Of a stretch of DNA of 64,000 nt, positions 4,450 to 60,502 are shown piece by piece. The translations under genes and the position numbers were made by a program. The stretch lies in contig JAFUTJ010000015.1 of assembly GCA_017471445.1 (NCBI GenBank), positions 25,352-89,351 of the forward strand, written 5' to 3'. This stretch comes from Alphaproteobacteria bacterium. Its GTDB lineage: Bacteria; Pseudomonadota; Alphaproteobacteria; Rs-D84. The notes under the pieces were generated by a model. That model saw only the letters and a program-made list of their open reading frames with translations, had not been told where the DNA came from and made no database searches. Position 1 is the first letter of the stretch, and each line of letters starts with the position of its first letter.

Positions 4450-5343
4450 TTAATTTGTTGGTACCAATTTTCCGCCCTGCATCTTTACTGCACTAATCCA
4501 ACATGTTGCGCCATTGCGTGGAACCGCCATGGCGTATTTTGTATGCTTTTCCGCATAAATATTTATGCCATTCATTGCCGTTTCGCCAATCCGACACAGC
4601 GGCAGGCACCGTCCATCACTTGTATGCCCATACCCCGCATCGCATTCCCAACAATCACGCGGTGTTAATGCGGTACCAGATACCCCCGGCATATTGGCAT
4701 AATGTGAATTTGGTGGCATATTTGTACAATCACGTATACCGGTGCAAATATAATTTTTTGTACTTCGACTATCACATCCATATATTTCGACCGCACCCGT
4801 AATTGGGTCATTATAGTATTCTTGTATGATATATGCGTTTTGTGAATCTGAATAAAACGCCTCGGCAAAAATACTGTTATGGTCGTCTGCGACCTTAAAA
4901 TTGTAATAACATTCTGTTATGTTTTTGGCGGTTAAAGACTTCGTTCGTGGCACCTTATAAACTGCAAACAAATAAATATCATTATAATCTTTGTAATATA
5001 CTTCCCATCCCCATGTTTTTTTGGGACATTCATATCGCGTATCATCCCCCGGGCAATAGCCGTATGCGACTTCTTTGTGCAGAACCACATCATTACATGT
5101 AATACATCTACCGTTTGACAAATAATACCCGGCATCGCATGTTGCAGCATTGGCAACGCCAATGCTGCAACAAAGTGCAATGAGCAGAGAACAAAAAGTA
5201 ATTTTTAATTTACACGCATGCCTTGTATGCGGATTTTTATTCACCCAGATTCCACGGTCAGGCCATAGAATTACATCAAATATTTTTTGCATCGTTGCTT
5301 TTTTGGATACAACTGAACTCTGAACACTGACAACTGTTGTCAT
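4450..5343 (-). CDS. Secreted cysteine-rich protein, family A paralog 1 (conserved C-terminal module)
   Basis: Signal-peptide h-region FCSLLIALCCSIGVANA. The mature N-terminus is ATCDAGYYLSNGRCITC. The C-terminus CWECDAGYGHTSDGRCLPLCRIGETAMNGINIYAEKHTKYAMAVPRNGATCWISA..QGGKL is shared with two other genes. RBS GGGGGA lies before the ATG at 5343. Confidence 0.75.
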   Translation of the reverse strand: MTTVVSVQSSVVSKKATMQKIFDVILWPDRGIWVNKNPHTRHACKLKITFCSLLIALCCSIGVANAATCDAGYYLSNGRCITCNDVVLHKEVAYGYCPGDDTRYECPKKTWGWEVYYKDYNDIYLFAVYKVPRTKSLTAKNITECYYNFKVADDHNSIFAEAFYSDSQNAYIIQEYYNDPITGAVEIYGCDSRSTKNYICTGIRDCTNMPPNSHYANMPGVSGTALTPRDCWECDAGYGHTSDGRCLPLCRIGETAMNGINIYAEKHTKYAMAVPRNGATCWISAVKMQGGKLVPTN

Positions 5344-5377
5344 AATTTCCCCCTTTCTGTTTCACGAATAAAAAATT

Positions 5378-5484
5378 CCGCGATGAAAAGCGCGGTCAGG
5401 GTGTTCAGAAAATCAAATCACACAATGACTCCTGTGGTCTTTTGCATTGCATTATAACCACAGGCACCCCAACCAAAATTAGGG
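5378..5484 (-). promoter_or_regulatory. Conserved structured 5' leader element of family A genes (copy 1)
   Basis: About 105 nt align position by position with 13245-13344, the same distance from the start codon. There are three helices with compensatory changes: CCTGTGG/CCACAGG versus CCATCGG/CCGTTGG; CCGCG/CGCGG versus CCGCA/TGCGG; CCCUAA/UUGGGG with a G-U wobble versus CCCCGA/TCGGGG. Confidence 0.5.
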
Positions 5485-5597
5485 ACATTAATATCGATGC
5501 AAAACATGGAATATTCTTTGAATTACGATGTTCGGCATCGGTGTGATAAAGGCTTTCTGACAGCCCCAAGGTTGATTTCCATCAAACCTTAATAAGT

Positions 5598-11336: not shown

Positions 11337-12338
11337 CTAATTCACCATCTGTAATTTCCCGCCCTGCCCCCGTTTTGCATTAATCCAACACGTTGCATCG
11401 CCGCGTGGTACCGCCATGGCGTATTTGGTATGCTTTTCGGCGTATATATTTATTCCGTTCATTGCGGTTTCACCAATCCGGCACAGTGGTAAACACCGGT
11501 CATCGGATGTGTGACCGAATCCATCATCGCATTCCCATGGGCAATTTGGTGTGCCATCGGTTGTATTTGCGGCGGTATAGTGTGCATTTGCCGGTGCGTT
11601 TGTGCATGGCATGCAATCTGATGCCGCGGCGGCGGTATCCGTTGCCGTATACGTGCCAACCGGACAATTATTAGTTAACGTCACAACATCAGATGAATAA
11701 TAACCCCAACCAACAGGAATACATTTTATATTTGCCGCATCATCAAAACTCTTAAATGTCATATAATAATAACTTAAATTACTATAATTCGTTAGTGTCC
11801 TAAAATTAAACCAATACCCTGTATCACAAATCGGGAAACGCTGAATAGACGATGTTAAATTAAAATTACATTTATATGTTGCATTAACAGATGTAAAAGA
11901 AGAATTGGTGTCATTGTATGCGCATGAAAAATAACTGTATCCATGGTCAATTTTTACAACAAAATTAACTTCACAACGGGTAATGGATTCAACGACATTA
12001 TCACCATTAACCCACGAACTATACTTGTGTAAATAATCTATATGGTCTGAATCAATTTCTGGGCATCGCATTCGTAAATCATTACCTGGACAATAATACG
12101 ATGGTGTTTCACCATTACTGCGATTACATGGTTGGCACGTGCCCGTATCATCCAACCAATACCCCGCATCACACGTTGCGGCATGGGCATTGGTTAACAT
12201 GCACATGCCAAACACCACACCCCATGCACCAAAAAACCACCGTTTTTTGTGCACGGGTAAAGGAAAATAAAATGGCGGATTTCTGGGGCTTTGTAAAAAA
12301 CAATTTGTGCACCAAAAAACGGTGGTTTTTTGGTGCAC
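11337..12338 (-). CDS. Secreted cysteine-rich protein, family A paralog 2
   Basis: It starts on GTG at 12338 with AGGGAAAT as RBS. An alternative GTG start at 12254 would give a clean signal peptide, (V/M)HKKRWFFGAWGVVFGMCMLTNAHA. The mature N-terminus is ATCDAGYWL..C..C. The C-terminal 70 aa are nearly identical to paralog 3. Confidence 0.7.
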   Translation of the reverse strand: MHQKTTVFWCTNCFLQSPRNPPFYFPLPVHKKRWFFGAWGVVFGMCMLTNAHAATCDAGYWLDDTGTCQPCNRSNGETPSYYCPGNDLRMRCPEIDSDHIDYLHKYSSWVNGDNVVESITRCEVNFVVKIDHGYSYFSCAYNDTNSSFTSVNATYKCNFNLTSSIQRFPICDTGYWFNFRTLTNYSNLSYYYMTFKSFDDAANIKCIPVGWGYYSSDVVTLTNNCPVGTYTATDTAAAASDCMPCTNAPANAHYTAANTTDGTPNCPWECDDGFGHTSDDRCLPLCRIGETAMNGINIYAEKHTKYAMAVPRGDATCWINAKRGQGGKLQMVN

Positions 12339-12403
12339 GGCTTATTTCCCTGTACGCCACGTATTGTAACGCATTGGGCGATTTTTTTCAATATGTTTTT
12401 TAA

Positions 12404-13207
12404 CTAATTTACCGGAACCAATTTACCACCCTGCCCCCGTTTTGCACTAATCCAACATGTTGCGCCACCGCGTGGTACGGCCATGGCGTATTTGGTATGC
12501 TTTTCGGCATATATGTTAATACCGTTCATTGCGGTTTCACCAATCCGACACAGTGGTAAACACCGGTCATCGGATGTGTGACCGAATCCATCATCGCATT
12601 CCCACGGGCAATCGTTTGCGTCCTTAATTGTGCCATCCACACTATCTGGTGTACCGGGGCCGGTATAGTGCGCATTTGCCGGCGCGTTGGTGCATGGTTT
12701 TACGCCATTGTACCAAACTTTATACGTGGTACTTCTATATGGCGATAGATAATAACCGGTTCCCGCCTCATAATAATATACGCATCTAACGGGGTATTCT
12801 TGCTTGGTTGTGTCGTATGCAACCTCTGACAGGCAACTATAATTCTTAAAAACAAAAAATGTATGGCGCCAACAGTTTGTAATTTTGGAACGCGCCGCCT
12901 GTGACGAACCGTCATACGTAAATCCTGTGCCCCAAGAAGACACTCCGGGCCTCAACTCCTCTATGAAAGTATCATCAAGAAACTGGTCATATTTTCCAAT
13001 ATATTTATCTTCGGGGCATTCGTATCTGATATCATCACCCGGACAATAATATGCATTTTCGCAATATGTACATTCGTTTTCAGTATTCAGATAAAAATTT
13101 GCCGGACAATTTGCGGCGCGGGCCGTGCCGACACCGCCAAACGCCACCAGCGCAAAAATCGCCATACCGCAAATTTTACGTTTATTATAACATATAAATC
13201 TTGTCAT
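12404..13207 (-). CDS. Secreted cysteine-rich protein, family A paralog 3
   Basis: Signal peptide MTRFICYNKRKICGMAIFALVAFGGVGTARA. Mature N-terminus ANCPANFYLNTENECTYC. The conserved C-terminal module is CPWECDDGFGHTSDDRCLPLCRIGETAMNGINIYAEKHTKYAMAVPRGGATCWISAKRGQGGKL. RBS GGGGGA. Confidence 0.75.
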   Translation of the reverse strand: MTRFICYNKRKICGMAIFALVAFGGVGTARAANCPANFYLNTENECTYCENAYYCPGDDIRYECPEDKYIGKYDQFLDDTFIEELRPGVSSWGTGFTYDGSSQAARSKITNCWRHTFFVFKNYSCLSEVAYDTTKQEYPVRCVYYYEAGTGYYLSPYRSTTYKVWYNGVKPCTNAPANAHYTGPGTPDSVDGTIKDANDCPWECDDGFGHTSDDRCLPLCRIGETAMNGINIYAEKHTKYAMAVPRGGATCWISAKRGQGGKLVPVN

Positions 13208-13244
13208 GATTTTATTCCCCCATTTGGTTTATTAAAATTAAACA

Positions 13245-13344
13245 CCGCAATGAAAATGCGGTCGGGGTGTAAGAAAATCACAATCAAGAATGATCCCAAC
13301 GGTCTTCGATATATAACCGATGGCACCCCGACCAAAATCGGGGG
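13245..13344 (-). promoter_or_regulatory. Conserved structured 5' leader element of family A genes (copy 2)
   Basis: It aligns with 5378-5484 and shows covariation in three helices (details under the copy 1 feature). Confidence 0.5.
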
Positions 13345-13510
13345 TATATACAATAACCGGCGCACACCGCGCCATTATTGCAACGGATTCAATACGTATT
13401 TGCACGTATCAACTTGATTGTGGACTTTCTTAGGGTCCCGAACCCAATTCCCATTGGATTCAGAATTATTTTAACGTAAACCAAGTATTAAACACAAGGT
13501 AATTTAGATA

Positions 13511-26844: not shown

Positions 26845-27525
26845 ATGGCATACATGTGGAACGAATTCAATATAAAACCAATACGTGCGGAAACAATTGT
26901 TTACCGCGATGGTGTATTTTTACCAGACGTGTCAACAATTGAAAACGGGCCAATTAACCGTAAATATGGATTGCCGGTACATGTTATTTATGTTGGTGAA
27001 ATTACCGGCGAAAATGCATTAAATATTGAAATAAACATTGAAAACCAACCGGTGTTTTTATCGGTAAACATAACAAATAAAACACCAACAATTTTTAATA
27101 TTTTTGTAAAAAATACCGGTAAAAAATCTGACTTTCGCGCGCACGTAATGTTAAATAATTCGGGTGAATTAAATTACCAATGCACGGCGCACCACACGGC
27201 CCCAGAAACAACAATTTTATTTCAGACAAAATTAATTGCCAACCGCGATTCAAAATCTAAAATTGCCGGCACGGCAATAATTGATAAAAATTGCGATGAT
27301 TGTATGTCCGACATCGGGTTTACCGCAATGGCAGACCGTTCGGCAAAAATATCATTTTTACCGGCCCAACGAATATTATCTGTACCACAACGGGCCGACC
27401 ATGGTGCGGCAATATACCGCCCAACCGATGCCCAGGTTTTATATTTGCGTGAATCCGGCCTATCCGGGGCAGAGGTTGATGATACCATGAAAGTGGCGTT
27501 CATGAACGATTTCGATTTATTCTGA
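26845..27525 (+). CDS. SufB/SufD-family protein (short, stand-alone)
   Basis: The C-terminus PTDAQVLYLRESGLSGAEVDDTMKVAFMNDF resembles the conserved SufB/SufD C-terminal helix (eQLFYLrSRGisEeeA...). No sufBC genes are adjacent. Confidence 0.45.
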   Translation: MAYMWNEFNIKPIRAETIVYRDGVFLPDVSTIENGPINRKYGLPVHVIYVGEITGENALNIEINIENQPVFLSVNITNKTPTIFNIFVKNTGKKSDFRAHVMLNNSGELNYQCTAHHTAPETTILFQTKLIANRDSKSKIAGTAIIDKNCDDCMSDIGFTAMADRSAKISFLPAQRILSVPQRADHGAAIYRPTDAQVLYLRESGLSGAEVDDTMKVAFMNDFDLF

Positions 27526-28449
27526 TTCCCGCCCATAAATAAATTCACTGGTACCGGAATTTTGGTGGAATTTTTGTTCCATCATGTCCCACATACCGTT
27601 ACTGGGCACCGTGTAATCGCCGATTCGTAATCCCGCCGGCACCGGAACCATGGTACGAATAATATCGTTAGAACGGCTGATGGTTATATCATATAGTTTT
27701 GCGATTGTTTTTGTATCACTGCTCGGATGAAGTAAAGTTATATTCTTGTCATTACCGTCAAAGTCAAAATAATTTATGTTTCTTACAACATCATCAAATA
27801 TAATATATCCAGAATTATTATAATTAAACATCAATGTGTATTTGTGATTCATAACAAGTTCATTAACCGATAATACCGGATTAGAATAACCAGAACCAGG
27901 CCCATAACCACAGGTAAATAACGTAACCCCATTATTGGTTCCACAATAAAAATGCGGGGAATATGTCGCAAATATTGGCGATGCCAGTTCGGTCAATTGA
28001 ATATATGCAAAATGCGTTTTAACGCCAACATTGTTTGCAGGGACAACATTTGTGCGAATTAATTGTTCACCGCTTGATTGAATATACACATCTGGGTCGG
28101 CATTAATCAGTTTACCGCCCGCAATTGTGTACCATGGACTGTAATCTGCGTGTAATACAATGTCGTGCGTATATGCGTACGGAATTGTTGTATTTGATGT
28201 AATAATTGTGTCACTGTCACCCACACGCCATGCGGGCGCATTGTTACAACCAACACCGGTTGTAAAGTTATTACCATACGCGGTGCTTTGTTGTGTTGGG
28301 GCATTCCCACCCGCCGGACAATCGTATGTTACGGTATATTGTTTCGGTATACAGAACTTTACATTTTCTGGTAATTCGGCATTTGCATTTGCCCAGAACA
28401 ACATCAAACCAAACAACACAGAAAACAACGATGATAATTTGTGTGTCAT
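27517..28449 (-). CDS. Secreted protein, family B paralog 1
   Basis: It starts at MTHKLSSLFSVLFGLMLFWANANA (signal peptide). Residues 1 to about 115 are nearly identical to 45659-46630. The rest is homologous but diverged (PHFYCG, FNYNNSG.IIFD, VPxGLRIGxYxVPxNGM, IYGR). Confidence 0.75.
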   Translation of the reverse strand: MTHKLSSLFSVLFGLMLFWANANAELPENVKFCIPKQYTVTYDCPAGGNAPTQQSTAYGNNFTTGVGCNNAPAWRVGDSDTIITSNTTIPYAYTHDIVLHADYSPWYTIAGGKLINADPDVYIQSSGEQLIRTNVVPANNVGVKTHFAYIQLTELASPIFATYSPHFYCGTNNGVTLFTCGYGPGSGYSNPVLSVNELVMNHKYTLMFNYNNSGYIIFDDVVRNINYFDFDGNDKNITLLHPSSDTKTIAKLYDITISRSNDIIRTMVPVPAGLRIGDYTVPSNGMWDMMEQKFHQNSGTSEFIYGRESE

Positions 28450-28690
28450 ATCTTTTTTTCCTCCCTGTTCCTTTATTTTTTCTAATAAAAAATATCCCAC
28501 GCGAAAACCGCAGTGGTTGGAGGTTCATAACTACAATAAGGTATAGCGGGCCTATTCAATATATTCAGCACCCCTCCAACCAAATTTAGATTGGAGATTT
28601 ACTATCGCCGCCCATACGGCAATACCTTATTTCAGGGTTATGACGCCCCAACACGTGCGAACACGCGTCGCGATAATATTAAATCATATT
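28450..28690 (-). promoter_or_regulatory. Conserved 5' leader of family B genes (copy 1) with long hairpin GGTTGGAGG...CCTCCAACC (28515-28581)
   Basis: Immediately upstream of the ATG, 74 nt are identical to 45585-45658. A 9-bp inverted repeat encloses about 50 nt. Further upstream similarity extends to the GCGACG...TGGGGCGTCA block. Confidence 0.45.
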
Positions 28691-36061: not shown

Positions 36062-38296
36062 ATGGCAGAGAAATTCAAGATTTTATCAGCGGGCGGTTCA
36101 TCCAAGGGCCTGAATATATTCAAGTCCGATGCCTATAAAGAGCACGAGCGCAAGCCCATGGCCCAGATTTTCTGGTCGCTGCGCTGGGCAATTGGTATAT
36201 GGCTGGCGGCCGCGGCGGCATTTTGTCTGGCCTTTATTGCGGAACATTTCTGGCGATACGGTTTTTCACCTGCATCATGGCGATGGGCGGGGTTATATAT
36301 GCGTGGTGTCATTATGACGTGCGGATTATCGGTCGTTGCCGAAATACCCGCGTGGATAACGCGCAGTATTGTTCGTGCCGATTTTGCCTGTATCGCACCA
36401 TTGTTGCCAATAATTGCGTATTATTTCCTGTCTGATAAAACATTGACCGGTGAATTTAACCCGTATGGCAAAGATAAATTTGACGAAAAATCATCAAACA
36501 AGGCAACCGCCGACGATATTAAGAAAATGGGTAAAGGCAAAGAAGGACTATTTGCCGGGTTTATGATGGTACTGGGATATTTCAAAAAAAAGCCGTTGAT
36601 GATGGATGAATGCCTGTCTGCATTGTGTGTTGCCCCCCCGGGAACCGGTAAAACCCAGGCTGTGTGCATCCCCACAATCTTGGAATGCAATAATGTTTCA
36701 ATGATTATCAACGACCCAAAACCGGAATTAAAACAAAAAACAAGTGCATATCGCGCAACCGTTGGACCGGTATTTATAATGAACTGGGCGGGCCAAGATG
36801 ACCCAGAACGCGGCGTTTATTATCCGTCGTGGAACCCGCTGTCGCCCGAACATGTTCCGTTTAACCAAGAACAACGCGACCTGTATATCGATTCAATTTG
36901 TAATGTATTGGTGCCGGACGCAACGGGGTCATCCGCCGACCCACACTGGACAATTTCTGGACGGGCGGCGTTATCAGGTATGATTCAATTCATCGTATCA
37001 AAAATTGAACGCGCCAAGGCAGATGATTATTTCTTTGCGCGTATGCAATCAGGCGAATTTAATTCCGAAGACGCAACCGTTTTACAGGATTATTATCTGT
37101 CTATGCGTGACGACCCGAACGCATATGCGGCGTTGGCAATGCTGCAACGCGGGGAATTGAATGCAACAAATTATGTACATGTTGGAACATGGGCAAATAT
37201 TCCAGACGCATGGTTAGGCAAAGAATCATCGTTATCTATGATACTGGACTGGTTAAATGCGGCGCAATTGGCCAACGCCCAAGAATTGGAAGAACGCCGC
37301 CGCGCCGGTGACCAAATGGTTATGATGGCCGACCCAATGAAAGATGTTTTGGAAAACGCCGTGAACGAGGCACGTCGTTATTCATACGCGCACCGCGCAG
37401 TTTTGGAATTAACACAACTGGCAAACACACCAGATAAAGAACGCGGTTCTATTTTATCAACCGTTATGGCGGGGTTATCAATATTCCGTAATGCCGCGGT
37501 TCGTAACCGGACCAGTCATTCTGACTTTCACTTTGCAGACTTACGCGGTCTGCGCGACCCACGCGACGGAAAAATTAAGCCAGTTACGGTGTACCTGTCC
37601 ATTAACATGGTCGATGCCGAGGCGTTAAACCCAATTACCGGTATATTTATTGAATTAATGTCATCTTTCTTGTTGGCCAATGCACCAGAACAAATGCGCG
37701 ATGGCGTACGCATGGGGCCATACCCGGTGTTATTTGTATTGGACGAAATGCCCAAAATGCAAAAGTTACAAGCGGTGATTCAGGGACCCGACCTGGGGCG
37801 TGGGCAACAGATTTCATACCTGATTATCGGCCAGGATTTACACCAGATTCAAGAAAAATATGGTGCAGATGCGGCGGCAACAATTATCTCTACCACTGCG
37901 GCAAAAATTGTTCTGCGACAAAACGACCCAGATTCTGCCAAACGATTTTCAGATATGATGGGTTATAAAATGAAAGTCAAAAAGGTCAAGGGTGCCGACG
38001 GCAAAGAAACCGAACAAACCGGTGAAGAATTATTATATTCACCAATGGATATTATGAAGTTGGATGATAACAAACAACTGGTTATATTCCAGGGATGGTA
38101 CCACCGCCCGATAGAGGCAGAAAAACGCTATGCATACAAAGATGCGAAATTGGCGCAATTTATGTCCATGGGTGAATCAACACCATTACCAGAATTTTTG
38201 ATACCATCGCATCATGCGGCAATGGGATATGACGGTACGCCACGCGTATATAACCCAATGACACACGAAATACGCATGGTTAATGTCGGTGGCTAA
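36062..38296 (+). CDS. virD4: Type IV secretion system coupling protein (VirD4/TraG family)
   Basis: It has two N-terminal TM helices, Walker A (VAPPGTGKTQAV) and Walker B (VLFVLDEMPKM), and is 744 aa. The first ~150 nt use noticeably GC-richer codons (aag, ctg, gag) than surrounding genes. Confidence 0.85.
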   Translation: MAEKFKILSAGGSSKGLNIFKSDAYKEHERKPMAQIFWSLRWAIGIWLAAAAAFCLAFIAEHFWRYGFSPASWRWAGLYMRGVIMTCGLSVVAEIPAWITRSIVRADFACIAPLLPIIAYYFLSDKTLTGEFNPYGKDKFDEKSSNKATADDIKKMGKGKEGLFAGFMMVLGYFKKKPLMMDECLSALCVAPPGTGKTQAVCIPTILECNNVSMIINDPKPELKQKTSAYRATVGPVFIMNWAGQDDPERGVYYPSWNPLSPEHVPFNQEQRDLYIDSICNVLVPDATGSSADPHWTISGRAALSGMIQFIVSKIERAKADDYFFARMQSGEFNSEDATVLQDYYLSMRDDPNAYAALAMLQRGELNATNYVHVGTWANIPDAWLGKESSLSMILDWLNAAQLANAQELEERRRAGDQMVMMADPMKDVLENAVNEARRYSYAHRAVLELTQLANTPDKERGSILSTVMAGLSIFRNAAVRNRTSHSDFHFADLRGLRDPRDGKIKPVTVYLSINMVDAEALNPITGIFIELMSSFLLANAPEQMRDGVRMGPYPVLFVLDEMPKMQKLQAVIQGPDLGRGQQISYLIIGQDLHQIQEKYGADAAATIISTTAAKIVLRQNDPDSAKRFSDMMGYKMKVKKVKGADGKETEQTGEELLYSPMDIMKLDDNKQLVIFQGWYHRPIEAEKRYAYKDAKLAQFMSMGESTPLPEFLIPSHHAAMGYDGTPRVYNPMTHEIRMVNVGG

Positions 38297-45439: not shown

Positions 45440-45658
45440 TTGATGCGACGTATTGTCGCATTGGGCGTCAGAACCCATAGAGGTGTCGGGATTACACCGA
45501 CAATTAAAATTCCAGCCGGCTATTTATCGGTTGGAGTGTGTGGAATATTTAGAATAACACACGCAATTCCTCTAATTGTTCTGAAGCTCCAACCACTGCG
45601 GTTTTCGCGTGGGATATTTTTTATTAGAAAAAATAAAGGAACAGGGAGAAAAAAAGAT
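45440..45658 (+). promoter_or_regulatory. Conserved 5' leader of family B genes (copy 2) with hairpin GGTTGGAG...CTCCAACC (45529-45594)
   Basis: The 74 nt before the ATG are identical to copy 1, and the upstream GCGACG...TGGGCGTCA block is shared. It contains the RBS GGAACAGGGAG. Confidence 0.45.
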
Positions 45659-46630
45659 ATGACAGGCAAATTATCATCATCGGTGTTTTATGTGTTGTTT
45701 GGTTTGATGTTGTTCTGGGCAAATGCAAATGCCGAATTACCAGAAAATGTAAAGTTCTGTATACCGAAACAATATAGGGTAACATACGATTGTCCGGCGG
45801 GTGGGAATGCGCCAACACAACAAACCACCGCGTATGGTAATAACTTTACAACCGGTGTTGGTTGTAACAATGCGCCCGCATGGCGTGTTGATGACAGTGA
45901 CACAATAATTACATCAAATACAACAATTCCATACGCATATACGCACGACATTGTATTACACGCAGATTACAGTCCGTGGTACACAATTGCGGGCGGACGG
46001 CTGATTAATGCCGATGCGGATGTGTATTTAAACAACAATCTTTCTGCATACGCATCATATGGCATTGATACGGGTGTAATGTCCACAAATAATATCGGAT
46101 GGGCAATTAATTTTACATATGAACAATTCAGAAATAGCGAAACACCAGAACATATTATTGGAACAATGTTCCCACATTTTTATTGTGGAATTGATACGGC
46201 CCATACTGGTTTTCTTTGCGCCTGTGGCCCAGAGGCCGGTTATGGAAACGGCATTGAAAACTACACAAATATGATTGTCGGCAAAAAATACAATCTGTTA
46301 TTTAACTATAATAATTCTGGCAAAATTATTTTTGATTACACGACCAATCTTGATTTATCGTGCACAGAATTGAATAACACGATTGGTAACACAATACGTT
46401 TGTTTCGTTCAACATCACAAAACGTAAATGCAACCAGCACGAATAATTATAGCATGGCAAAAATATATGATGTAAAAATCAGCGATGGCCAAACAATGAT
46501 TCGTAATTTTGTGGCGGTACCGTCGGGTCTGCGCATTGGTAATTATATCGTTCCAAAAAACGGCATGTTTGATATTGTTGAACAGAAATTTTATCAACCT
46601 GTTGCGAATATGATATATGGGCGCGATTAA
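45659..46630 (+). CDS. Secreted protein, family B paralog 2
   Basis: The start is at MTGKLSSSVFYVLFGLMLFWANANA (ATG at 45659, RBS GGGAG). The ORF-track start at 45440 is an in-frame upstream extension through the leader. The N-terminal 115 aa are nearly identical to paralog 1. Confidence 0.75.
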   Translation: MTGKLSSSVFYVLFGLMLFWANANAELPENVKFCIPKQYRVTYDCPAGGNAPTQQTTAYGNNFTTGVGCNNAPAWRVDDSDTIITSNTTIPYAYTHDIVLHADYSPWYTIAGGRLINADADVYLNNNLSAYASYGIDTGVMSTNNIGWAINFTYEQFRNSETPEHIIGTMFPHFYCGIDTAHTGFLCACGPEAGYGNGIENYTNMIVGKKYNLLFNYNNSGKIIFDYTTNLDLSCTELNNTIGNTIRLFRSTSQNVNATSTNNYSMAKIYDVKISDGQTMIRNFVAVPSGLRIGNYIVPKNGMFDIVEQKFYQPVANMIYGRD

Positions 46631-49095: not shown

Positions 49096-49453
49096 GCCCA
49101 GATATAAAATGGAATTTTACAATTATAAGAAAACACTTATATACCGCTAAGAACTAAACGACTTGCTTTTTTTGGTATCTTTCACAATAATAGTAAATGA
49201 ATCCAATGGGAATTGGGTTTGGGGCATTAGCGTGCCCGTTTGCATCCGGTGCGATTGCGTCGTTAAAAAAATATATTTTACAACACTTTTGCACCGAATT
49301 TTGTCATTGTTCCCCGAACGTTGGTCTGGGGTGCCGGTGGTTATACAACAGGTTTCTAAACCAAAGGCCATCCGGGTCATTGATGCAAATGATACGCTAA
49401 CACCCCGACCATCAATTTCCGTTGATGGTTTTTATTTTTTTATGGGGGAAATT

Positions 49454-50332
49454 ATGAAAAAATTTATTCTTATTTTGATATGCATGAACATAACACTGCC
49501 ATGCTTTGGCAAATTTAAAATACAAGACAGCAATTCATGCGTTATTGATACATATGGGCGCAATAAGTATTGGTTCTGTGGGTCAACAAATAAAACAAAA
49601 TGTGGCTCTACAACATTCTCTCGCGATAATCGCGAAGCACGTGATATGACACATGGCGAAGTTGTAACAGATTATCGCGCACGTGGTACGCATGACCATT
49701 ATAATTTGTTATGTTGTGTGGTTGATGGCAAGGGATTCTTTAAGTACACAACCAAGAGCAAGGCGAAACCAGCCGAATTAAAAAATGAATACATATCGGA
49801 AAATATTACAATTAAAACAGACGAAGGCGGATCATGTACATATGTTAAAACCGTTGATACATGCGGCAATATTATTTCTGATATACCATGCACCGCACGT
49901 GACGACTGTCAAAGCGATGAAATTGTTCGTAATAAAAAATGTGTTAAACCATGCACAGAACCATTGGTGTTTTTTTCGCCAGATGTTGATACATGTGTTA
50001 ATTGTGAAGAAACAAATTACCAAGGTATCGCAATGGACAGCCAAGGCCACAAATATTGCAAAAAATGTGCAGACAACGAAATATGGTTAAAAACCAAAAA
50101 AGACTGTGTAAAAAAAGAAACTTTGACCATTGTGAACAAGGTTGATATGCAAAGATGTTGGCAATGCAAAAGCGTTGATTCATTCAGAAAATGCGCACTG
50201 GGCGAAGATGTTACATGCGGGTCATCTGCATCAACCGGCACAGAGAAAAACAAGCAAACAATACCAACACCAACACTGAAACGTGTTGAAACGGGCCCAA
50301 TACAAAATCTGGGCAAAGTAATTCCGTTTTAA
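49454..50332 (+). CDS. Secreted cysteine-rich hypothetical protein (292 aa)
   Basis: Starts MKKFILILICMNITLPCFG with RBS GGGGGA. It has about 30 Cys, many in CxxC pairs (CVNCEE, CKKCAD, CWQCKS). The ORF-track start at 49163 is an upstream in-frame extension. Confidence 0.6.
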   Translation: MKKFILILICMNITLPCFGKFKIQDSNSCVIDTYGRNKYWFCGSTNKTKCGSTTFSRDNREARDMTHGEVVTDYRARGTHDHYNLLCCVVDGKGFFKYTTKSKAKPAELKNEYISENITIKTDEGGSCTYVKTVDTCGNIISDIPCTARDDCQSDEIVRNKKCVKPCTEPLVFFSPDVDTCVNCEETNYQGIAMDSQGHKYCKKCADNEIWLKTKKDCVKKETLTIVNKVDMQRCWQCKSVDSFRKCALGEDVTCGSSASTGTEKNKQTIPTPTLKRVETGPIQNLGKVIPF

Positions 50333-55829: not shown

Positions 55830-56900
55830 CTAATTAAACATTGCCGTTATTTGGTCTTGCATTTGGAATGTACCGAATATTACCCATGCGATTATCAATG
55901 ACACTAATATAATTCCAATATTATTTAATGCAGATGACACCGCGTCCATTTTGCGCACAGATTCATCCAAGTAATCATTTGCAATGCGGGTTAAATTCTG
56001 GTCAAAATCTGTCATATCTGCGTATATTTCCAAATCACCAATAATTTCGGAATTTGGAAACCCGCGCCCGGTGCCATTTAACGCCGACCCCAAGTTTTCA
56101 CCATTTGCAATTCGTCGCAGTGTGGCATCCAATATTGACCGTAAATACCGGTTGGAATTATCGGCCAACATGCGCATTGCATCGGGCAATGTAATACCCG
56201 CCGCAACCAATGCCGCCAACCCGGTCAACCAACCGACCGATTCCTGAATCTTGTATATATTCCATGGTGGCAAATCGTCAAAGCGCGCACGCATTTTACC
56301 CGACCAATTTGGTAAACTGAATGCGATAATCAAAACCAGCGTCACAAACCCGATTGCAATTATATACCAATATGCCCCGGCAAAGTTTGACACCCATACC
56401 AAAGATGCGGCCACGCCACGCCACGCGATATTATTGCCTGCAACCGCGGCCAATGGCGGCACCAAATAAATTCCAACCATTATTATTATCGCGATTGTTA
56501 ATGCAAACAAAAACAACGGGTACGCAACCGCCCCCATAAATGCCCGCCGTATGCGACCAATGCCACCCACCATGCGTTCCAGGTTTTCCAACGCAACAAC
56601 CAAACTGGAAATATTCCCCGATGTCAGCAGCAGTGTTTCATTCGGTGCCATCCACCCGCGGGTGGCATCAGAAAAACTCATCCCGCGTTCCAGATTCTTT
56701 TGCCATTGACGCATAACAATTGCAAATGGTTCATGTGGATTTTTTCCACCGTTTGATTCAATCCGTTCAATCCGCCCCAGCGCATCCATCAATGTAAAAT
56801 CGTTCCGCAACAGCGATGCCAGTTTTCGCGCAACAGACATACGCTTGTTCGTGTTCATACGAAACACCAACCGCGCATAAGATAATTCCAGGCGGTTCAT
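55830..56900 (-). CDS. Type IV pilus/T2SS inner-membrane platform protein (GspF/PilC/TcpE/BfpE family)
   Basis: 356 aa with three TM helices and T2SSF-type repeat architecture. It lies directly downstream of the PilB/GspE-family ATPase. Confidence 0.7.
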   Translation of the reverse strand: MNRLELSYARLVFRMNTNKRMSVARKLASLLRNDFTLMDALGRIERIESNGGKNPHEPFAIVMRQWQKNLERGMSFSDATRGWMAPNETLLLTSGNISSLVVALENLERMVGGIGRIRRAFMGAVAYPLFLFALTIAIIIMVGIYLVPPLAAVAGNNIAWRGVAASLVWVSNFAGAYWYIIAIGFVTLVLIIAFSLPNWSGKMRARFDDLPPWNIYKIQESVGWLTGLAALVAAGITLPDAMRMLADNSNRYLRSILDATLRRIANGENLGSALNGTGRGFPNSEIIGDLEIYADMTDFDQNLTRIANDYLDESVRKMDAVSSALNNIGIILVSLIIAWVIFGTFQMQDQITAMFN

Positions 56901-56901
56901 A

Positions 56902-58539
56902 TTAATACACCCCCGGCTGGTTCAATAACCCGACCCAACGTTCCAATTCATCAACGCCGATTATACCCTTTAACATTAATTCCGTGGCGGATTCTTTCAA
57001 TGTGCGGCCATCCATTTCTTCCAACCAATATTTTATTGCCGCATCTGTATCGCCGGATAATGCCAATGATAAAAATTCACCATTTGTTATTATTATTTCG
57101 CCGGCCTTGATACGACCAATTGTGCCGGTACCGTTACATTCGCGGCACCCTGCCCCACGAATATAAACCTGACGCAAGCCCAGTTCACCAAACATATCAC
57201 GCACGCGATTGTACGCCGGGTGTTCCGGGTGGTCAATTAACCGTTCGCGACAATGTGGGCACAGTTTCTTGAACAAACGCATTGATATCAGCCCACGCAT
57301 CAGCGTTTCTTCCTTTAACTTGAAACTTTCAACCCCCATGTCCAGCAATCGCGTCAACGCCGCAATGGCGGAATTGGCATGCAATGTTGTCCAAACATTA
57401 TGCCCCGACAGTGCCGCCCGAACCGTCAACTGGGCCGCAGATAACGTACGAATTTCACCAACCATCATTGTATCTGGGTCACTGCGCAGGGCCGCGGCCA
57501 ACGCTTCGGTATATTTTTCATCACGCTGTTCTTCGTTTACGGCATTAACAACCGGCATTTGGTGTGCACCAAAAATCTTTTGTTCAACCGGGTCTTCGAC
57601 CGTAATCATATTTATTTCATAATGCCGTTCTTTTAGCATTAATGACATATTATGAACCAATGTCGTGGATTTACCAGAACTTGTTGGCCCCGCAACAATT
57701 ACCAACCCCGTCGGGAACGACCGCATACGCGCCAACAGTTTTTGTTCATATTCGCCAAATTCCTGTTCGGTTTTAATGCCTGCACTGGGGTTATCATACA
57801 ACAGGCGCATTACAACATATCGCGTGCCGAATGCAACCGGATTAAATTGCATACGTATACTTAAAATACCATTCGGCAGATACAGGTCTTTTGTTCCACG
57901 CAATGGCGTGCGCCCATCTTTCTGGGCCGATTGATATTCATTTTGCGCATAGTTTGCATTTGACATATCTGCCGACGCAAACGCCGCACGAACAAAAGAT
58001 TCACCCCAACCGGAATTATATTCCAAAACAGGTTGCATACTGCCATCAATGCGAAAATATATTGTGGTCTGGTCGGCAACTTCTATATGAACATCAGATA
58101 CCTTTTGCGCGGCAGCACGCGCGATAATGTCAACAAAATCCTTTTGCATTTGGTTATCAAAATCTGTGCGGGCACGCGCACCCCCACCCAGTTTCGATTC
58201 ATGAACCTTGTAAATACTGGAAACCAAACCCAAATCAGAATAAAACGGCACACGAACATTACTGGTCCGACGATGAATCAGGTCAACAAATGCCAATACC
58301 CGTCCATCATAACGATGTGTACGCGATATTATCAATTCACCCCCAGAAAAATATGCAACCAAACTTTGCATATCTTTGGACAATTCCATTTCGGCACCGG
58401 TTGCAGTCAACAGCCGATTTCCGTTGGAAAATAAATAATCAACAATATCTTTGTTTTCTGCACTGTCCAATCCCGCCGGAATTGACGGTTGCGACGCATC
58501 GGGAATATTGTTCAAGATATCTTTTTCTTTATAACGCAT
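56902..58539 (-). CDS. Type IV pilus/T2SS assembly ATPase (GspE/PilB/TcpT/BfpD family)
   Basis: Walker A VAGPTSSGKSTTL, Asp/His boxes, Walker B MMVGEIR. Tetracysteine zinc motif CPHC...CREC. 545 aa. Confidence 0.85.
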   Translation of the reverse strand: MRYKEKDILNNIPDASQPSIPAGLDSAENKDIVDYLFSNGNRLLTATGAEMELSKDMQSLVAYFSGGELIISRTHRYDGRVLAFVDLIHRRTSNVRVPFYSDLGLVSSIYKVHESKLGGGARARTDFDNQMQKDFVDIIARAAAQKVSDVHIEVADQTTIYFRIDGSMQPVLEYNSGWGESFVRAAFASADMSNANYAQNEYQSAQKDGRTPLRGTKDLYLPNGILSIRMQFNPVAFGTRYVVMRLLYDNPSAGIKTEQEFGEYEQKLLARMRSFPTGLVIVAGPTSSGKSTTLVHNMSLMLKERHYEINMITVEDPVEQKIFGAHQMPVVNAVNEEQRDEKYTEALAAALRSDPDTMMVGEIRTLSAAQLTVRAALSGHNVWTTLHANSAIAALTRLLDMGVESFKLKEETLMRGLISMRLFKKLCPHCRERLIDHPEHPAYNRVRDMFGELGLRQVYIRGAGCRECNGTGTIGRIKAGEIIITNGEFLSLALSGDTDAAIKYWLEEMDGRTLKESATELMLKGIIGVDELERWVGLLNQPGVY

Positions 58540-58542
58540 TTT

Positions 58543-59253
58543 TTATTTTGTACTGGCAATATTCAAGGTTTGCTTTTTACCGTCTTTCTCAAAAACGACA
58601 CCTTCGTCCAAAGATATCGATTTTACGGTAAACCCATCCAAGGTGCGACCAACACTTACACGTTTGTTTTGGCCAGAATCCATATCTGCCAATGTTGCCT
58701 GTAATTGATTACCGGCACCAATTACGTTTACTAATTTATATTTATCAACAATCTTGAATTCGTCTGTATCTTCTTCGGCCGCGGTGGATTTTGCGCGCGA
58801 TGCAGATGTACGCACCGGTGCAGTGGCCGGCTTTACATCACCCGACATCAGGTTTTGTTTTTCCAATTCCAATTTCGCCGTTTCGTTTTCTAATTTTGCC
58901 TTTTCCATTTCGAATTCTTGCTGCTGCTGTTCGGCCCGGCCAGACAGCGTATCAATTTCCATATGCAATTTTATTTTTTCTGCGGCCAAGCGGTCCAATT
59001 CCAAATCCAACTGGGCACGTTCTTTTTCCAATTGCATTAATATTTTTTCTTGTTCCAAATCTGTAATTTGTTGAAACAGTGAACCCGATACATCATAATC
59101 TGCAACCGCCGCCGCAGATGGGTCAACCACATCTGATTCAACCAGGTCATCGGTCAATAAATCTGCATCATCTGCCGCGTACACGCATGGCGCGACAATT
59201 GTGAATATGCCGAAAACCATTGCCATAAAAAATAATTTCTTGTTATTTTGCAT
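58543..59253 (-). CDS. Secreted coiled-coil protein with PilP/GspC-HR-like C-terminal domain (putative pilus assembly component)
   Basis: Signal peptide MQNNKKLFFMAMVFGIFTIVAPCVYA. The central region is a coiled-coil rich in E, K and L. The C-terminus YKLVNVIGAGNQLQATLADMDSGQNKRVSVGRTLDGFTVKSISLDEGVVF follows the PilP/GspC pattern. Confidence 0.45.
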   Translation of the reverse strand: MQNNKKLFFMAMVFGIFTIVAPCVYAADDADLLTDDLVESDVVDPSAAAVADYDVSGSLFQQITDLEQEKILMQLEKERAQLDLELDRLAAEKIKLHMEIDTLSGRAEQQQQEFEMEKAKLENETAKLELEKQNLMSGDVKPATAPVRTSASRAKSTAAEEDTDEFKIVDKYKLVNVIGAGNQLQATLADMDSGQNKRVSVGRTLDGFTVKSISLDEGVVFEKDGKKQTLNIASTK

Positions 59254-60502
59254 AAATTATCACCTCATAGTTCCATGTGCGATTTGTCGCGTTCCATTCT
59301 GTACGTGTCATATATACACCACCAAAATCATCAAAGATTTTCATAAATTGTGACGGTATTAATTTTGATGCCGCCGCAATTTCTAATACGTTTACATTAA
59401 CGGTTTCAACGCCATTTGTAATGGTATCAACCACAACATCAATATCGGGTGTTATGTCTATACCCTGAAATATCGTAGATATATTGCGAACAATTGTGTC
59501 GGCATCGCGTTCGTCTTGGGATGCATGTGTTGCAATTTTTGGCAATACCGCACGAACGGTTAATGCACTGTCGCCACGTTCTTGGACAATTGCACCCGGC
59601 ATTAAATCGCCCGCAACAACATAAAAATCGCCCAACGTTCCATAATCGCGCCGAAATTCAACCGTTGCATCGGATTCATCACACCGAACAGACACCTGAA
59701 TCCACCCAGGAATTGGCTGCATCAAAAATCCCATTGCCTGGTAACACAAATCTGCGCGTTCATACACATCTGGTAAATTATCGTATGGCAATACCAAGGG
59801 TTCCGGCACATTCTTTTTTATTTCATATTCCGCATCTAACTGACGATTACTTTCTTCAACCTGGCGTTTATATTCCGCGGCCAATTCTGGGTCAATATGT
59901 GCAATTTGTGGACGCGGGGCAAATACCTGAACCAATGAATCACGGTATAACCAAAATACACCCACCGCAAACGCACATAATAACAACAGCGAAAATAATA
60001 TTGTTCGTGCACGACTGATATACCGTAACACGCCCGCATGTCGTCCGTCTAAGACATCGGCCAATGTACGTTCAACCGCCCGCGGTGCGCCCCATGCCGC
60101 CGGTGCAACAAACGCACCCCAATCCGGCATTTCGGCCAATGCAAAATATTCACGACGTGCGTCGGATTCATGCATAAAAATTTTGTCTGCCAAAATTATC
60201 CCGTTACGCGCCGCGACCAATATATACGCGCCGTCGTTATAAAACATTGCCAAAAAAGATGAATATTCTGGGAATACCGCCATAATATCCGCAGCAATTG
60301 ACGGCATGCCACTGCGGTGTCCCATACGACGCGCCCCCAATCCAATCATATTATGCCATGAAACGAACAAATTAAATCGCGCATCAACCACACGCGCCAA
60401 CGCCCGCGCAGAATTGCGCGCCGGAACATTTGCGTCACTTGGTTGCCAAAACAAACCAACTGCGTATTTTTTGCGGTTAACTGATATAACTTGGGCGGCC
60501 AA
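59243..60502 (-). CDS. Bitopic inner-membrane assembly protein (GspL/BfpC/TcpR/R64-PilO-like, putative)
   Basis: 419 aa. It has a cytoplasmic N-domain of about 170 aa, a single TM helix (ILFSLLLLCAFAVGVFWLY) and a periplasmic C-domain. Its 3' end overlaps the start of the PilP-like gene. Confidence 0.4.
   Translation of the reverse strand: MAAQVISVNRKKYAVGLFWQPSDANVPARNSARALARVVDARFNLFVSWHNMIGLGARRMGHRSGMPSIAADIMAVFPEYSSFLAMFYNDGAYILVAARNGIILADKIFMHESDARREYFALAEMPDWGAFVAPAAWGAPRAVERTLADVLDGRHAGVLRYISRARTILFSLLLLCAFAVGVFWLYRDSLVQVFAPRPQIAHIDPELAAEYKRQVEESNRQLDAEYEIKKNVPEPLVLPYDNLPDVYERADLCYQAMGFLMQPIPGWIQVSVRCDESDATVEFRRDYGTLGDFYVVAGDLMPGAIVQERGDSALTVRAVLPKIATHASQDERDADTIVRNISTIFQGIDITPDIDVVVDTITNGVETVNVNVLEIAAASKLIPSQFMKIFDDFGGVYMTRTEWNATNRTWNYEVIIYAK

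Follow-up and report, generated by a model that had tools for sequence, protein, structure and literature searches.

A 64,000-nt stretch of an uncultured gut alphaproteobacterium (GenBank assembly GCA_017471445.1, contig JAFUTJ010000015.1, positions 25,352 to 89,351; "the window" below) carries three related genes, here called A, B, and C. We think they probably belong to a phase-variable, recombining, lineage-specific family of exported or surface proteins. Near-identical cassettes of this family differ in the orientation of a short segment between promoter and gene, and the family genes are mosaics from recombination between paralogs. An original prediction, made from the letters of the window, had proposed a variable surface-antigen or effector family, and both the invertible ON/OFF leader and the mosaicism give that idea independent support. 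The surface location of the proteins, the role of their C-terminal domain, and the biological purpose of their variation are what we infer from these patterns. The genes are laid out as follows.

Gene A: 11337..12338, minus strand; intact open reading frame (ORF), 333 aa in the ENA call; the NCBI call, IJ560_02870, starts at 12215 and has 292 aa.
Gene A mature protein: from 12179, minus strand; begins ATCDAGYWL.
Gene B: 12404..13207, minus strand; intact ORF, 267 aa; signal peptide MTRF...GTARA followed by ANCPANFYL; 14 Cys in the mature part.
Gene C: 4450..5343, minus strand; intact ORF, 297 aa; more diverged singleton with a 66-aa presequence before ANA/ATCDAGYYL.

As predicted, all three encode signal peptides. 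By inspection, each has the basic n-region, hydrophobic h-region, and A-x-A motif of Sec export and signal peptidase I cleavage, ending AHA, ARA, or ANA directly before A-[TN]-C: ...HKKR-WFFGAWGVVFGMCML-TNAHA in A, MTRFICYNKRK-ICGMAIFALVAFGGVG-TARA in B, and ...HACKLK-ITFCSLLIALCCSIG-VANA in C, each cleaved before an A. In the AlphaFold2 model of B, the signal segment is a low-confidence helix. The mature N-terminus begins ATCDAGY[WY]L in A and C, in line with the claim of such a start for two of the three genes, and B has a variant form of this module, ANCPANFYL. A, B, and C have 33 consecutive residues, RCLPLCRIGETAMNGINIYAEKHTKYAMAVPR, in common without change, and gene A has an extra insertion of ~75 aa with Cys-rich modules that is missing from B and C. 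A lipoprotein processed by signal peptidase II was rejected, as no lipobox ([LVI][ASTVI][GAS]C) occurs in A, B, or C; the first Cys contexts are ARAANC, AHAATC, and ANAATC. A tblastn search with the three proteins found no fourth copy in the window. The presequence of gene C (5146-5343, minus strand, 66 aa) has ~40 residues more ahead of a normal n-h-c signal. The leader model described below puts a Shine-Dalgarno (SD) sequence and ATG at 5343; either this is a true N-terminal extension or the start is an internal GTG at 5244.

The evidence for phase variation lies between the B stop codon and the A signal peptide, where two sites with 28-nt inverted-repeat arms (96% complementary) enclose a short spacer.

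Gene A promoter: 12363..12391, minus strand; sigma-70-like, TTGAAA-17-TACAAT, 10/12 matches; outside the invertible segment.
Switch site 1: 12307..12338, minus strand; GTGCACCAAAAAA-CCACCG-TTTTTTGGTGCAC, a 13-6-13 dyad with an asymmetric core.
Invertible spacer: 12255..12306, minus strand; 52 nt, seen OFF; in reverse complement it is gggtaaAGGAaaataaaATGgcggatttc..., which contributes an SD and an ATG that is in frame with the signal peptide.
Switch site 2: 12224..12254, minus strand; GTGCACAAAAAA-CGGTGG-TTTTTTGGTGCAT, overlapping the n-region codons (KKRWFF).

The core of site 2 is the reverse complement of that of site 1, and the sites are inverted, a layout which we take to be that of paired, inverted core sites for a recombinase. 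At 7/7 loci examined (8 sequences, with the window contig counted twice), the upstream core is CCACCG and the gene-proximal one CGGTGG, and in paralogous cassettes the promoter (TTGCCA-17-TATGAT) is likewise fixed upstream of site 1. The spacer is OFF in the window and at loci L027, L028, L029, and L031, and reversed, or ON, at L026 and L030. L026 and L029 are collinear over 1,132 nt, within which 117 nt match in reverse at 97.4%; the L028/L029 spacer is the exact reverse complement (52/52) of the L026 spacer, and the 62 nt upstream are identical. The asymmetry of the inner half-sites (GG/CC) travels with the segment. Both orientations are also seen among related proteins: some members of one 90% cluster start MADFWGFVKNNLCTKKRWFF... 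(MADFWGF..., ON) and others read through the OFF sequence. ON and OFF loci also occur together in one sample. Near-identical cassettes are thus polymorphic for an inverted segment.

The two orientations have different predicted consequences. In the window, the sense strand can fold site 1, with AAATTGTTTTTT after it, into a terminator-like hairpin, and the signal peptide lacks both an SD and an ATG ahead of it. A pattern scan flags this first hairpin with AAATTGTTTT on the sense strand in OFF loci only, the T run lying 3-5 nt past the stem. The ON orientation carries AAGGA-N7-ATG in frame with the signal peptide, and flipping the window element in silico gives aaaGGAaaataaaATG and an SD-preceded, in-frame precursor, MADFWGFVKNNLCTKKRWFFGAWGVVFGMCMLTNAHA, cleaved before ATCD. 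In the mechanism we propose, gene A-type copies would have a fixed promoter followed by a 52-bp segment between inverted 13-6-13 recombinase-type sites. In the OFF state, site 1 and the T run would form the terminator-like hairpin and the signal peptide would lack a start; a flip would remove the terminator configuration and supply SD and start codon. Active switching within the population would fit the polymorphism, and termination in the OFF state the hairpin. The A and T runs in the switch sites vary among loci (A6 or A7; T6 or T7), and since site 2 lies in the coding region when ON, changes in run length could add frameshift-type variation.

The same layout could instead have arisen from old, fixed inversions or from recombination between the 5' regions of paralogs, the palindromic sites being bidirectional terminators between tandem genes. 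As this explanation would have it, both sites are strong hairpins on their own, and site 1 comes directly after the B stop codon; it also fits with the absence of any same-locus polymorphism or identified recombinase among our data and with two scans of JGI metagenomes, one with the switch spacer and one with the site as query, which returned 0 matches. However, the flipped spacers are 52/52 identical in cassettes that are otherwise 93-100% identical, with breakpoints exactly at the cores, which points to a very recent inversion. The opposed-core, two-site layout is present at all seven loci, including L027 and L031, which have no upstream family gene, and chance is an unlikely reason for an ON orientation in which an SD and an ATG stand ahead of a signal peptide in frame. 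Together with the presence of ON and OFF loci in one sample, this makes fixed inversion an improbable explanation. Misassembly was rejected as a cause of the inversion because the inverted repeats are at most 32 nt long; the final k-mers of assemblers are expected to be longer than that. Rfam has no match to the switch.

Inversion switches in leaders are as such already known. In Clostridioides difficile, cwpV has a fixed promoter, an invertible leader, and a predicted terminator in the OFF state, formed by a hairpin at the junction of inverted repeat and segment and a U run (PMC2784873). The switch of gene A is like the cwpV/RecV system in its fixed upstream promoter, its invertible segment in the 5' leader, and its OFF hairpin and T run as a candidate terminator; here, too, inverted repeats lie between a fixed promoter and an ORF, and both orientations exist across loci. 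It differs in size, with a segment of 52 bp where cwpV has 195 bp, and in its sites, which are 13-6-13 dyads of 31-32 bp whose asymmetric cores are opposed. The ON state would also bring a start codon with its SD and ~12 codons from the beginning of the signal peptide. Moreover, the switch, as predicted from sequence, is repeated before many paralogs, with ~10 N-terminal types seen, and belongs to a Gram-negative alphaproteobacterium. A miniature switch that carries the SD and ATG appears to be undescribed. Variable multigene families are a known kind as well. Mycoplasma penetrans mpl, M. pulmonis vsa, and M. bovis vsp are families of variable surface (lipo)proteins with site-specific inversion. 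As in those species, a few percent of the genes of a small genome belong to one exported family whose members are controlled by DNA inversion. Unlike the Mycoplasma proteins, those described here have no lipobox, are disulfide-rich and globular rather than repeat-rich, and show no sequence relationship to them; and what is inverted is a leader with SD and ATG instead of a promoter or the coding body.

Genes B and C have no switch. They are preceded instead by a leader of ~140 nt in which a 5' anti-SD, a long-range helix, and a terminator-like hairpin with a U run are followed by the SD. A covariance model of this leader, built from seven examples, places it as follows.

Leader RNA of gene B, class I: 13205..13348, minus strand.
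Leader RNA of gene C, class I: 5338..5489, minus strand.
Leader RNA before other signal-peptide genes: 28449-28599 (minus strand), 45507-45659 (plus strand), and 49309-49459 (plus strand).

Further copies were found in L005, L007, L013, L016-L019, L022-L026, L028, and L030, and the model also places the leader directly upstream of family genes in metagenome-assembled genomes (MAGs) of other species. The leader has two covarying sequence classes. In 22 instances, 93% of cells were paired compared with 74% in shuffles, double changes were seen in 17/20 pairs, and the covariation score was 0.58 versus 0.08-0.12 for slid controls, values taken from an alignment fitted to the model, which favours the structure. 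No Rfam family matches the leaders: only tRNA and tmRNA reached threshold, and permissive scans gave nothing below E 0.1. CsrA-type control was rejected because the GGA motif is absent from class I leaders. In our mechanism, the structured leader would serve gene B- and C-type copies as cis control in place of the switch. It could be an attenuator, a thermometer-like mask of the SD, or a switch that responds to a ligand or protein, and it appears to be undescribed.

Three of the genes behind this leader in the window lie outside the family. Two of them (27517-28449, minus strand, and 45659-46630, plus strand) form a second pair of signal-peptide paralogs, MT[HG]KLSS...WANANA cleaved before ELPENVKFC, with no Pfam match. 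Their first 100 aa are 93% identical and the remainder ~35%, which reverses the pattern of A, B, and C: the N-terminus is conserved and the C-terminus variable. The third (49454-50332, plus strand) encodes a Cys-rich signal-peptide protein of 292 aa with no Pfam match above threshold; an ORF from 49163 and an ENA call of ~366 aa both run through the leader and are probably over-extended. In the related MAG L018, a family gene with leader follows UDG/gyrB in a region syntenic to the gyrB-UDG block of the window.

The second line of evidence comes from the division of the family proteins into parts that evolve differently. The most conserved part is a module at the extreme C-terminus, called the tail below.

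C-terminal module of gene A: 11337..11543, minus strand; from CPWEC to the end, 68 codons and stop.
Equivalent modules of genes B and C: 12404-12610 and 4450-4656, minus strand.

The original prediction was that all three proteins end in ~100 nearly identical residues, with the singleton more diverged. This describes the last 68 codons well, with 94% amino acid identity between A and B and 79-85% between either and C, but not the preceding CTNAP...DCPWEC stretch, which is 42-62% identical among the three. It had also taken the last ~200 nt of the tandem pair to be near-identical as DNA and the product of gene conversion. The two genes have 211 nt in common at 90% identity, and their tails differ mostly at synonymous sites. 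By the Nei-Gojobori method, the proportion of synonymous differences (pS) in the tail is 0.32 for A-B, 0.68 for A-C, and 0.60 for B-C, and the ratio of nonsynonymous to synonymous substitution rates (dN/dS) is ~0.1 in every pair tested (0.10 for A-B). With synonymous sites this diverged, conservation of the tail is mainly a matter of purifying selection, not of recent gene conversion.

Cores behave in the opposite way. Their dN/dS in close pairs was 1.25 and 2.0, although these values above 1 rest on ~20 substitutions per pair, which tempers our reading. The ratio of nonsynonymous to synonymous changes was 22:3 in the core and 13.5:20.5 in the tail of L027/L030 (p = 3.5e-4), and 17.7:4.3 and 1:5 in L026/L028 (p = 0.007); across comparisons, the p value of the core-versus-tail contrast ranged from 0.007 to 4e-5. 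The predicted pattern of conserved termini around a diversifying core is therefore borne out. The cores also move. L030 and L031 are different loci from one sample, and 133 of their codons (core and C1) are all but identical with zero synonymous differences, while the flanks are old, with a synonymous divergence (dS) of 0.40 in the N-terminal module and 0.56 in the tail. For L027/L030, dS rises from ~0.05 over the first two-thirds of the gene to 0.3-0.7 over the last third. Such a mosaic pattern implies that exchange moves cores, with breakpoints within the conserved modules. Family genes are mosaics from recombination between paralogs, and in our mechanism the cores would both gather amino acid changes and pass between loci through breakpoints in the conserved modules.

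Ongoing conversion between paralogs might still be what keeps the 3' ends alike, with the variable middle escaping it. All paralogs of the window species have one species-specific, shortened variant of the tail, and the dS of A-B is lower in the tail (0.42) than in the N-terminal module (1.4) or the core, where it is saturated; both facts suit this explanation. It fits poorly with tails that have pS of 0.32 to 0.68 at 79-94% amino acid identity, and in several pairs, L030/L031 and L027/L030 (dS 0.68 versus 0.047) among them, the tail is the synonymously most diverged part and the core is all but identical. From these pairs, it is the cores that conversion tracts cover, and protein selection that holds the tail. 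We consider conversion of the 3' ends a doubtful cause of their conservation.

Anaplasma Msp2/P44, Borrelia VlsE, and Neisseria pilE/pilS are antigen systems that work by segmental gene conversion. The present family is like them in having conserved ends around a hypervariable centre and central segments that move between copies with breakpoints in the flanks. It is unlike them in that nothing points to one expression site supplied from donors without promoters. A donor-cassette system of the Msp2/VlsE type was rejected, as 10/10 copies examined as DNA are full ORFs with either their own promoter and switch or their own leader. Whole cassettes may also change places. At L026 (2678-3803) and L028/L029 (2756-3884), the gene, the 3' end of its neighbour, the promoter, and the switch are 93-97% identical, and the flanks are unrelated: the cassette lies between fabF and rpsL in one place and between an autotransporter gene and rsmD in the other. 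Either cassettes are relocated or copied between loci, or strains are rearranged at family genes. At L027 (3942-4030), 12 nt left over from the 3' end of a family gene (ccggtaaattag, encoding ...PVN*) lie upstream of a switch-type copy with no family gene before it, which suggests that the duplicated unit starts inside the tail of the preceding gene.

The centres of A, B, and C had been thought unrelated. At 16-25% identity they are nevertheless alignable across 63 family members, in which the core has one invariant Cys and a G.YL motif (G151 and L154 invariant, Y153 in at least 90%). From the 63-sequence alignment, AlphaFold2, which had been suggested as a check for a folded domain, predicted gene B with a mean pLDDT (predicted local distance difference test score) of 90.8 and a pTM (predicted template modelling score) of 0.78. 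The mature part after the signal helix is modelled as all beta, and the core as one confident beta domain. Judged by alignment and model, the cores are homologous and folded rather than unrelated. We would place A, B, and C in a multigene family specific to their lineage, whose all-beta proteins of ~230 aa are exported by Sec and rich in disulfides. Each has a conserved Cys hairpin module at the N-terminus, a central beta-sheet domain that evolves fast, and a strictly conserved C-terminal domain.

The family had been suspected to be undescribed, and database searches agree. Pfam and NCBIfam gave nothing at threshold on A, B, C, and the relatives scanned with them, apart from DUF8003 (PF26010), a precomputed match (E <= 1e-5) on gene A and on neither B nor C. 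One giant relative, P0223, does match PF07699, which bears on the resemblance to eukaryotic ephrin-receptor modules noted from the Cys spacing. Ephrin_rec_like/GCC2_GCC3 (PF07699) scored 14.2 bits on gene A (residues 205-242, E 0.039), below its gathering threshold of 23.1, and did not match B or C; P0044 reached 18.6 bits, again below threshold, and P0223 passed with 36.5 bits over 5 stretches. The resemblance thus holds for a giant relative and not for the window proteins. TNFR_c6 (PF00020, gathering threshold 29.4 bits) and Furin-like_2 (28 bits) stayed below threshold. A sequence-profile search of the PDB returned 0 matches and there was no PDB match by fold; the best Foldseek hits were TNFR-family cysteine-rich domains (4-1BB, HVEM, CrmE), led by 4-1BB at a non-significant E of 0.04. 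As modelled, the Cys-rich module is a set of confidently folded domains without a solved relative and with at most a faint TNFR-like flavour, and the predicted fold appears to be undescribed. The spacing C-x2-G-Y...C-x2-C is shared with Ephrin_rec_like/GCC2_GCC3 modules, TNFR cysteine-rich domains, and Giardia VSP-like proteins. Unlike these eukaryotic modules, the window proteins fall below the thresholds of the hidden Markov models, are bacterial and Sec-exported, and have central beta-sheet and C-terminal beta domains without counterpart there.

The C-terminal domain, modelled with a pLDDT of 95.3, has a wider distribution than the rest of the protein. Related bacteria have proteins of 1,171-4,255 aa whose extreme C-terminus matches profile positions ~145-262, and the tails of these giants align residue for residue with those of the small proteins. 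The giants that were scanned (1,171-2,921 aa) have Listeria-Bacteroides repeats (Flg_new), one of them together with Ephrin_rec_like modules. The shortened tail of the window species, common to all its paralogs, reads ...CRIGETAMNGINIYAEKHTKYAMAVPR...GGKLVPVN, and that of other species ...PLF...TPAL.V...CY..L..G...IN...YH..N. The module could have matched a known family of characterised function, but a comparison with known C-terminal sorting and anchor domains (the type IX secretion system (T9SS) C-terminal domain, autotransporters, the YadA anchor, and others) gave no match in Pfam, in NCBIfam, or by fold, and an autotransporter or T9SS tail was rejected. The C-terminal domain of the T9SS is a sorting domain common to many secreted proteins. 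The domain seen here is like it in being a conserved, ~65-110-aa extreme C-terminal domain of hundreds of proteins, from 230 to >4,000 aa, in one lineage. Since it always comes last, in proteins of every size, it probably mediates a step they have in common, such as attachment or anchoring, sorting, or secretion and export. Anchoring by the termini, as first proposed, would fit with its closing giant repeat proteins in relatives. The domain appears to be undescribed.

Alternatively, the proteins may be secreted to act on a partner cell, be it host epithelium, a protist, or another bacterium, as effectors, toxins, or binding proteins, with the C-terminal domain as an export signal for cargo and the variation as the result of an arms race. 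No anchor motif or lipobox was found, and a domain common to hundreds of proteins of very different size looks like a cargo tag. The window has a cluster of type IV pilus- or type II secretion-like ATPase and platform genes and a VirD4-like coupling protein, and the lineage is predicted to depend on a partner cell (PMC12306168). However, the giant relatives have adhesin-type Flg_new repeats, which are typical of cell-attached proteins, and surface structures are where ON/OFF control of many single paralogs is more usually seen. Searches showed no catalytic or toxin domain in what is predicted to be a compact, disulfide-locked beta scaffold. We think effectors rather unlikely, in the knowledge that this explanation overlaps with our own and differs from it only in where the protein ends up. 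The export-related genes just mentioned, a VirD4/TraG-type coupling protein (36062-38296, plus strand) and a cluster of PilO-like, T2SSE ATPase, and T2SSF platform genes (55830-60502, minus strand), are possible export or contact machinery in an otherwise housekeeping-like genome.

The size of the family and its place in one lineage can be read from sequence databases. Gene B is identical to IJ560_02875 and gene A is IJ560_02870, both from a MAG labelled "Alphaproteobacteria bacterium". The contig with A and B corresponds to XIEF21-1_SAMN15829980 scaffold_61, of 204 kb, from a ruminant gastrointestinal metagenome. A genome-wide count of members, which had been proposed as a check, found them in at least 32 IJ560_ locus tags of this MAG, with 91 word-index matches. 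Given ~900 genes, as estimated from the highest locus tag seen (04530), the family makes up ~3% of the MAG. Many of these members are partial and lie at contig ends, as expected when a repeated family breaks assemblies. A profile search of 1.84 billion representative proteins gave 700 matches at E <= 1e-3 and 94 at E <= 1e-30. The relatives come from MAGs of uncultured gut Alphaproteobacteria of mice, sheep, humans, and termites, including Candidatus Enterousia, and housekeeping neighbours in two of these MAGs are 74-79% identical to window genes. Enterousia and the order Rs-D84 are described as having genomes of less than 1 Mb, and an obligate symbiotic or parasitic, partner-dependent lifestyle has been predicted for them (PMC12306168). 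The organism belongs to a host-associated lineage, as the original prediction had supposed. The literature on the family, on DUF8003, and on Rs-D84 surface proteins yielded nothing specific, and DUF8003 was found in no paper.

Several points weigh against a phase-variable family of surface proteins. A search through protein clusters for one chromosomal locus in both orientations instead led to ON and OFF copies of a near-identical cassette in different genomic contexts, and gene A is OFF on 4/4 contigs that carry it. No recombinase is encoded in the 64-kb window. The sole recombinase-like gene near any switch is a 335-aa P4-like tyrosine integrase at L035 (6034-7041, plus strand), 3 kb upstream of an ON switch in another sample, with 33 bits to Phage_int_M and a weak catalytic domain (E 0.024). 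Three A residues separate the stem from the T run in the OFF "terminator", and a reading frame from a GTG with a weak SD crosses the OFF sequence without a stop; consequently, OFF may be leaky or merely a different state. With membrane anchor, lipobox, and known sorting motif all absent from our searches, the proteins could be periplasmic or released. The lifestyle is that of Rs-D84 and Enterousia (PMC12306168), to which this MAG is presumed to belong, and the whole evidence base consists of assemblies of uncultured bacteria.

If our reading is right, the variation may serve to evade host immunity or phage, or to vary adhesion to a partner cell. More tentatively, as a possibility that we hold less likely than not, this bacterium of the gut, with ~1 Mb of genome and probably in need of a partner cell, may run a variation system of five parts that has so far gone unrecognised. 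These would be a new disulfide-rich fold in at least 30 copies, cassette-like exchange of cores through conserved modules, a 52-bp inversion switch that flips ribosome-binding site, start codon, and terminator, a new covarying leader RNA in control of the copies without a switch and of further genes for secreted proteins, and a new C-terminal domain as a common tag for anchoring or export. Three of its elements can be tested: a tiny inversion switch whose point of action is not a promoter but translation initiation and termination, a confidently predicted new fold, and a covarying structured RNA. Rs-D84/Enterousia-like Alphaproteobacteria are widespread in the guts of ruminants, mice, birds, and humans, with genomes of less than 1 Mb and no described mode of interaction with a host or partner cell. 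A family with its own switch, its own leader RNA, and a C-terminal domain in common with giant adhesin-like proteins is an obvious candidate for that interface.

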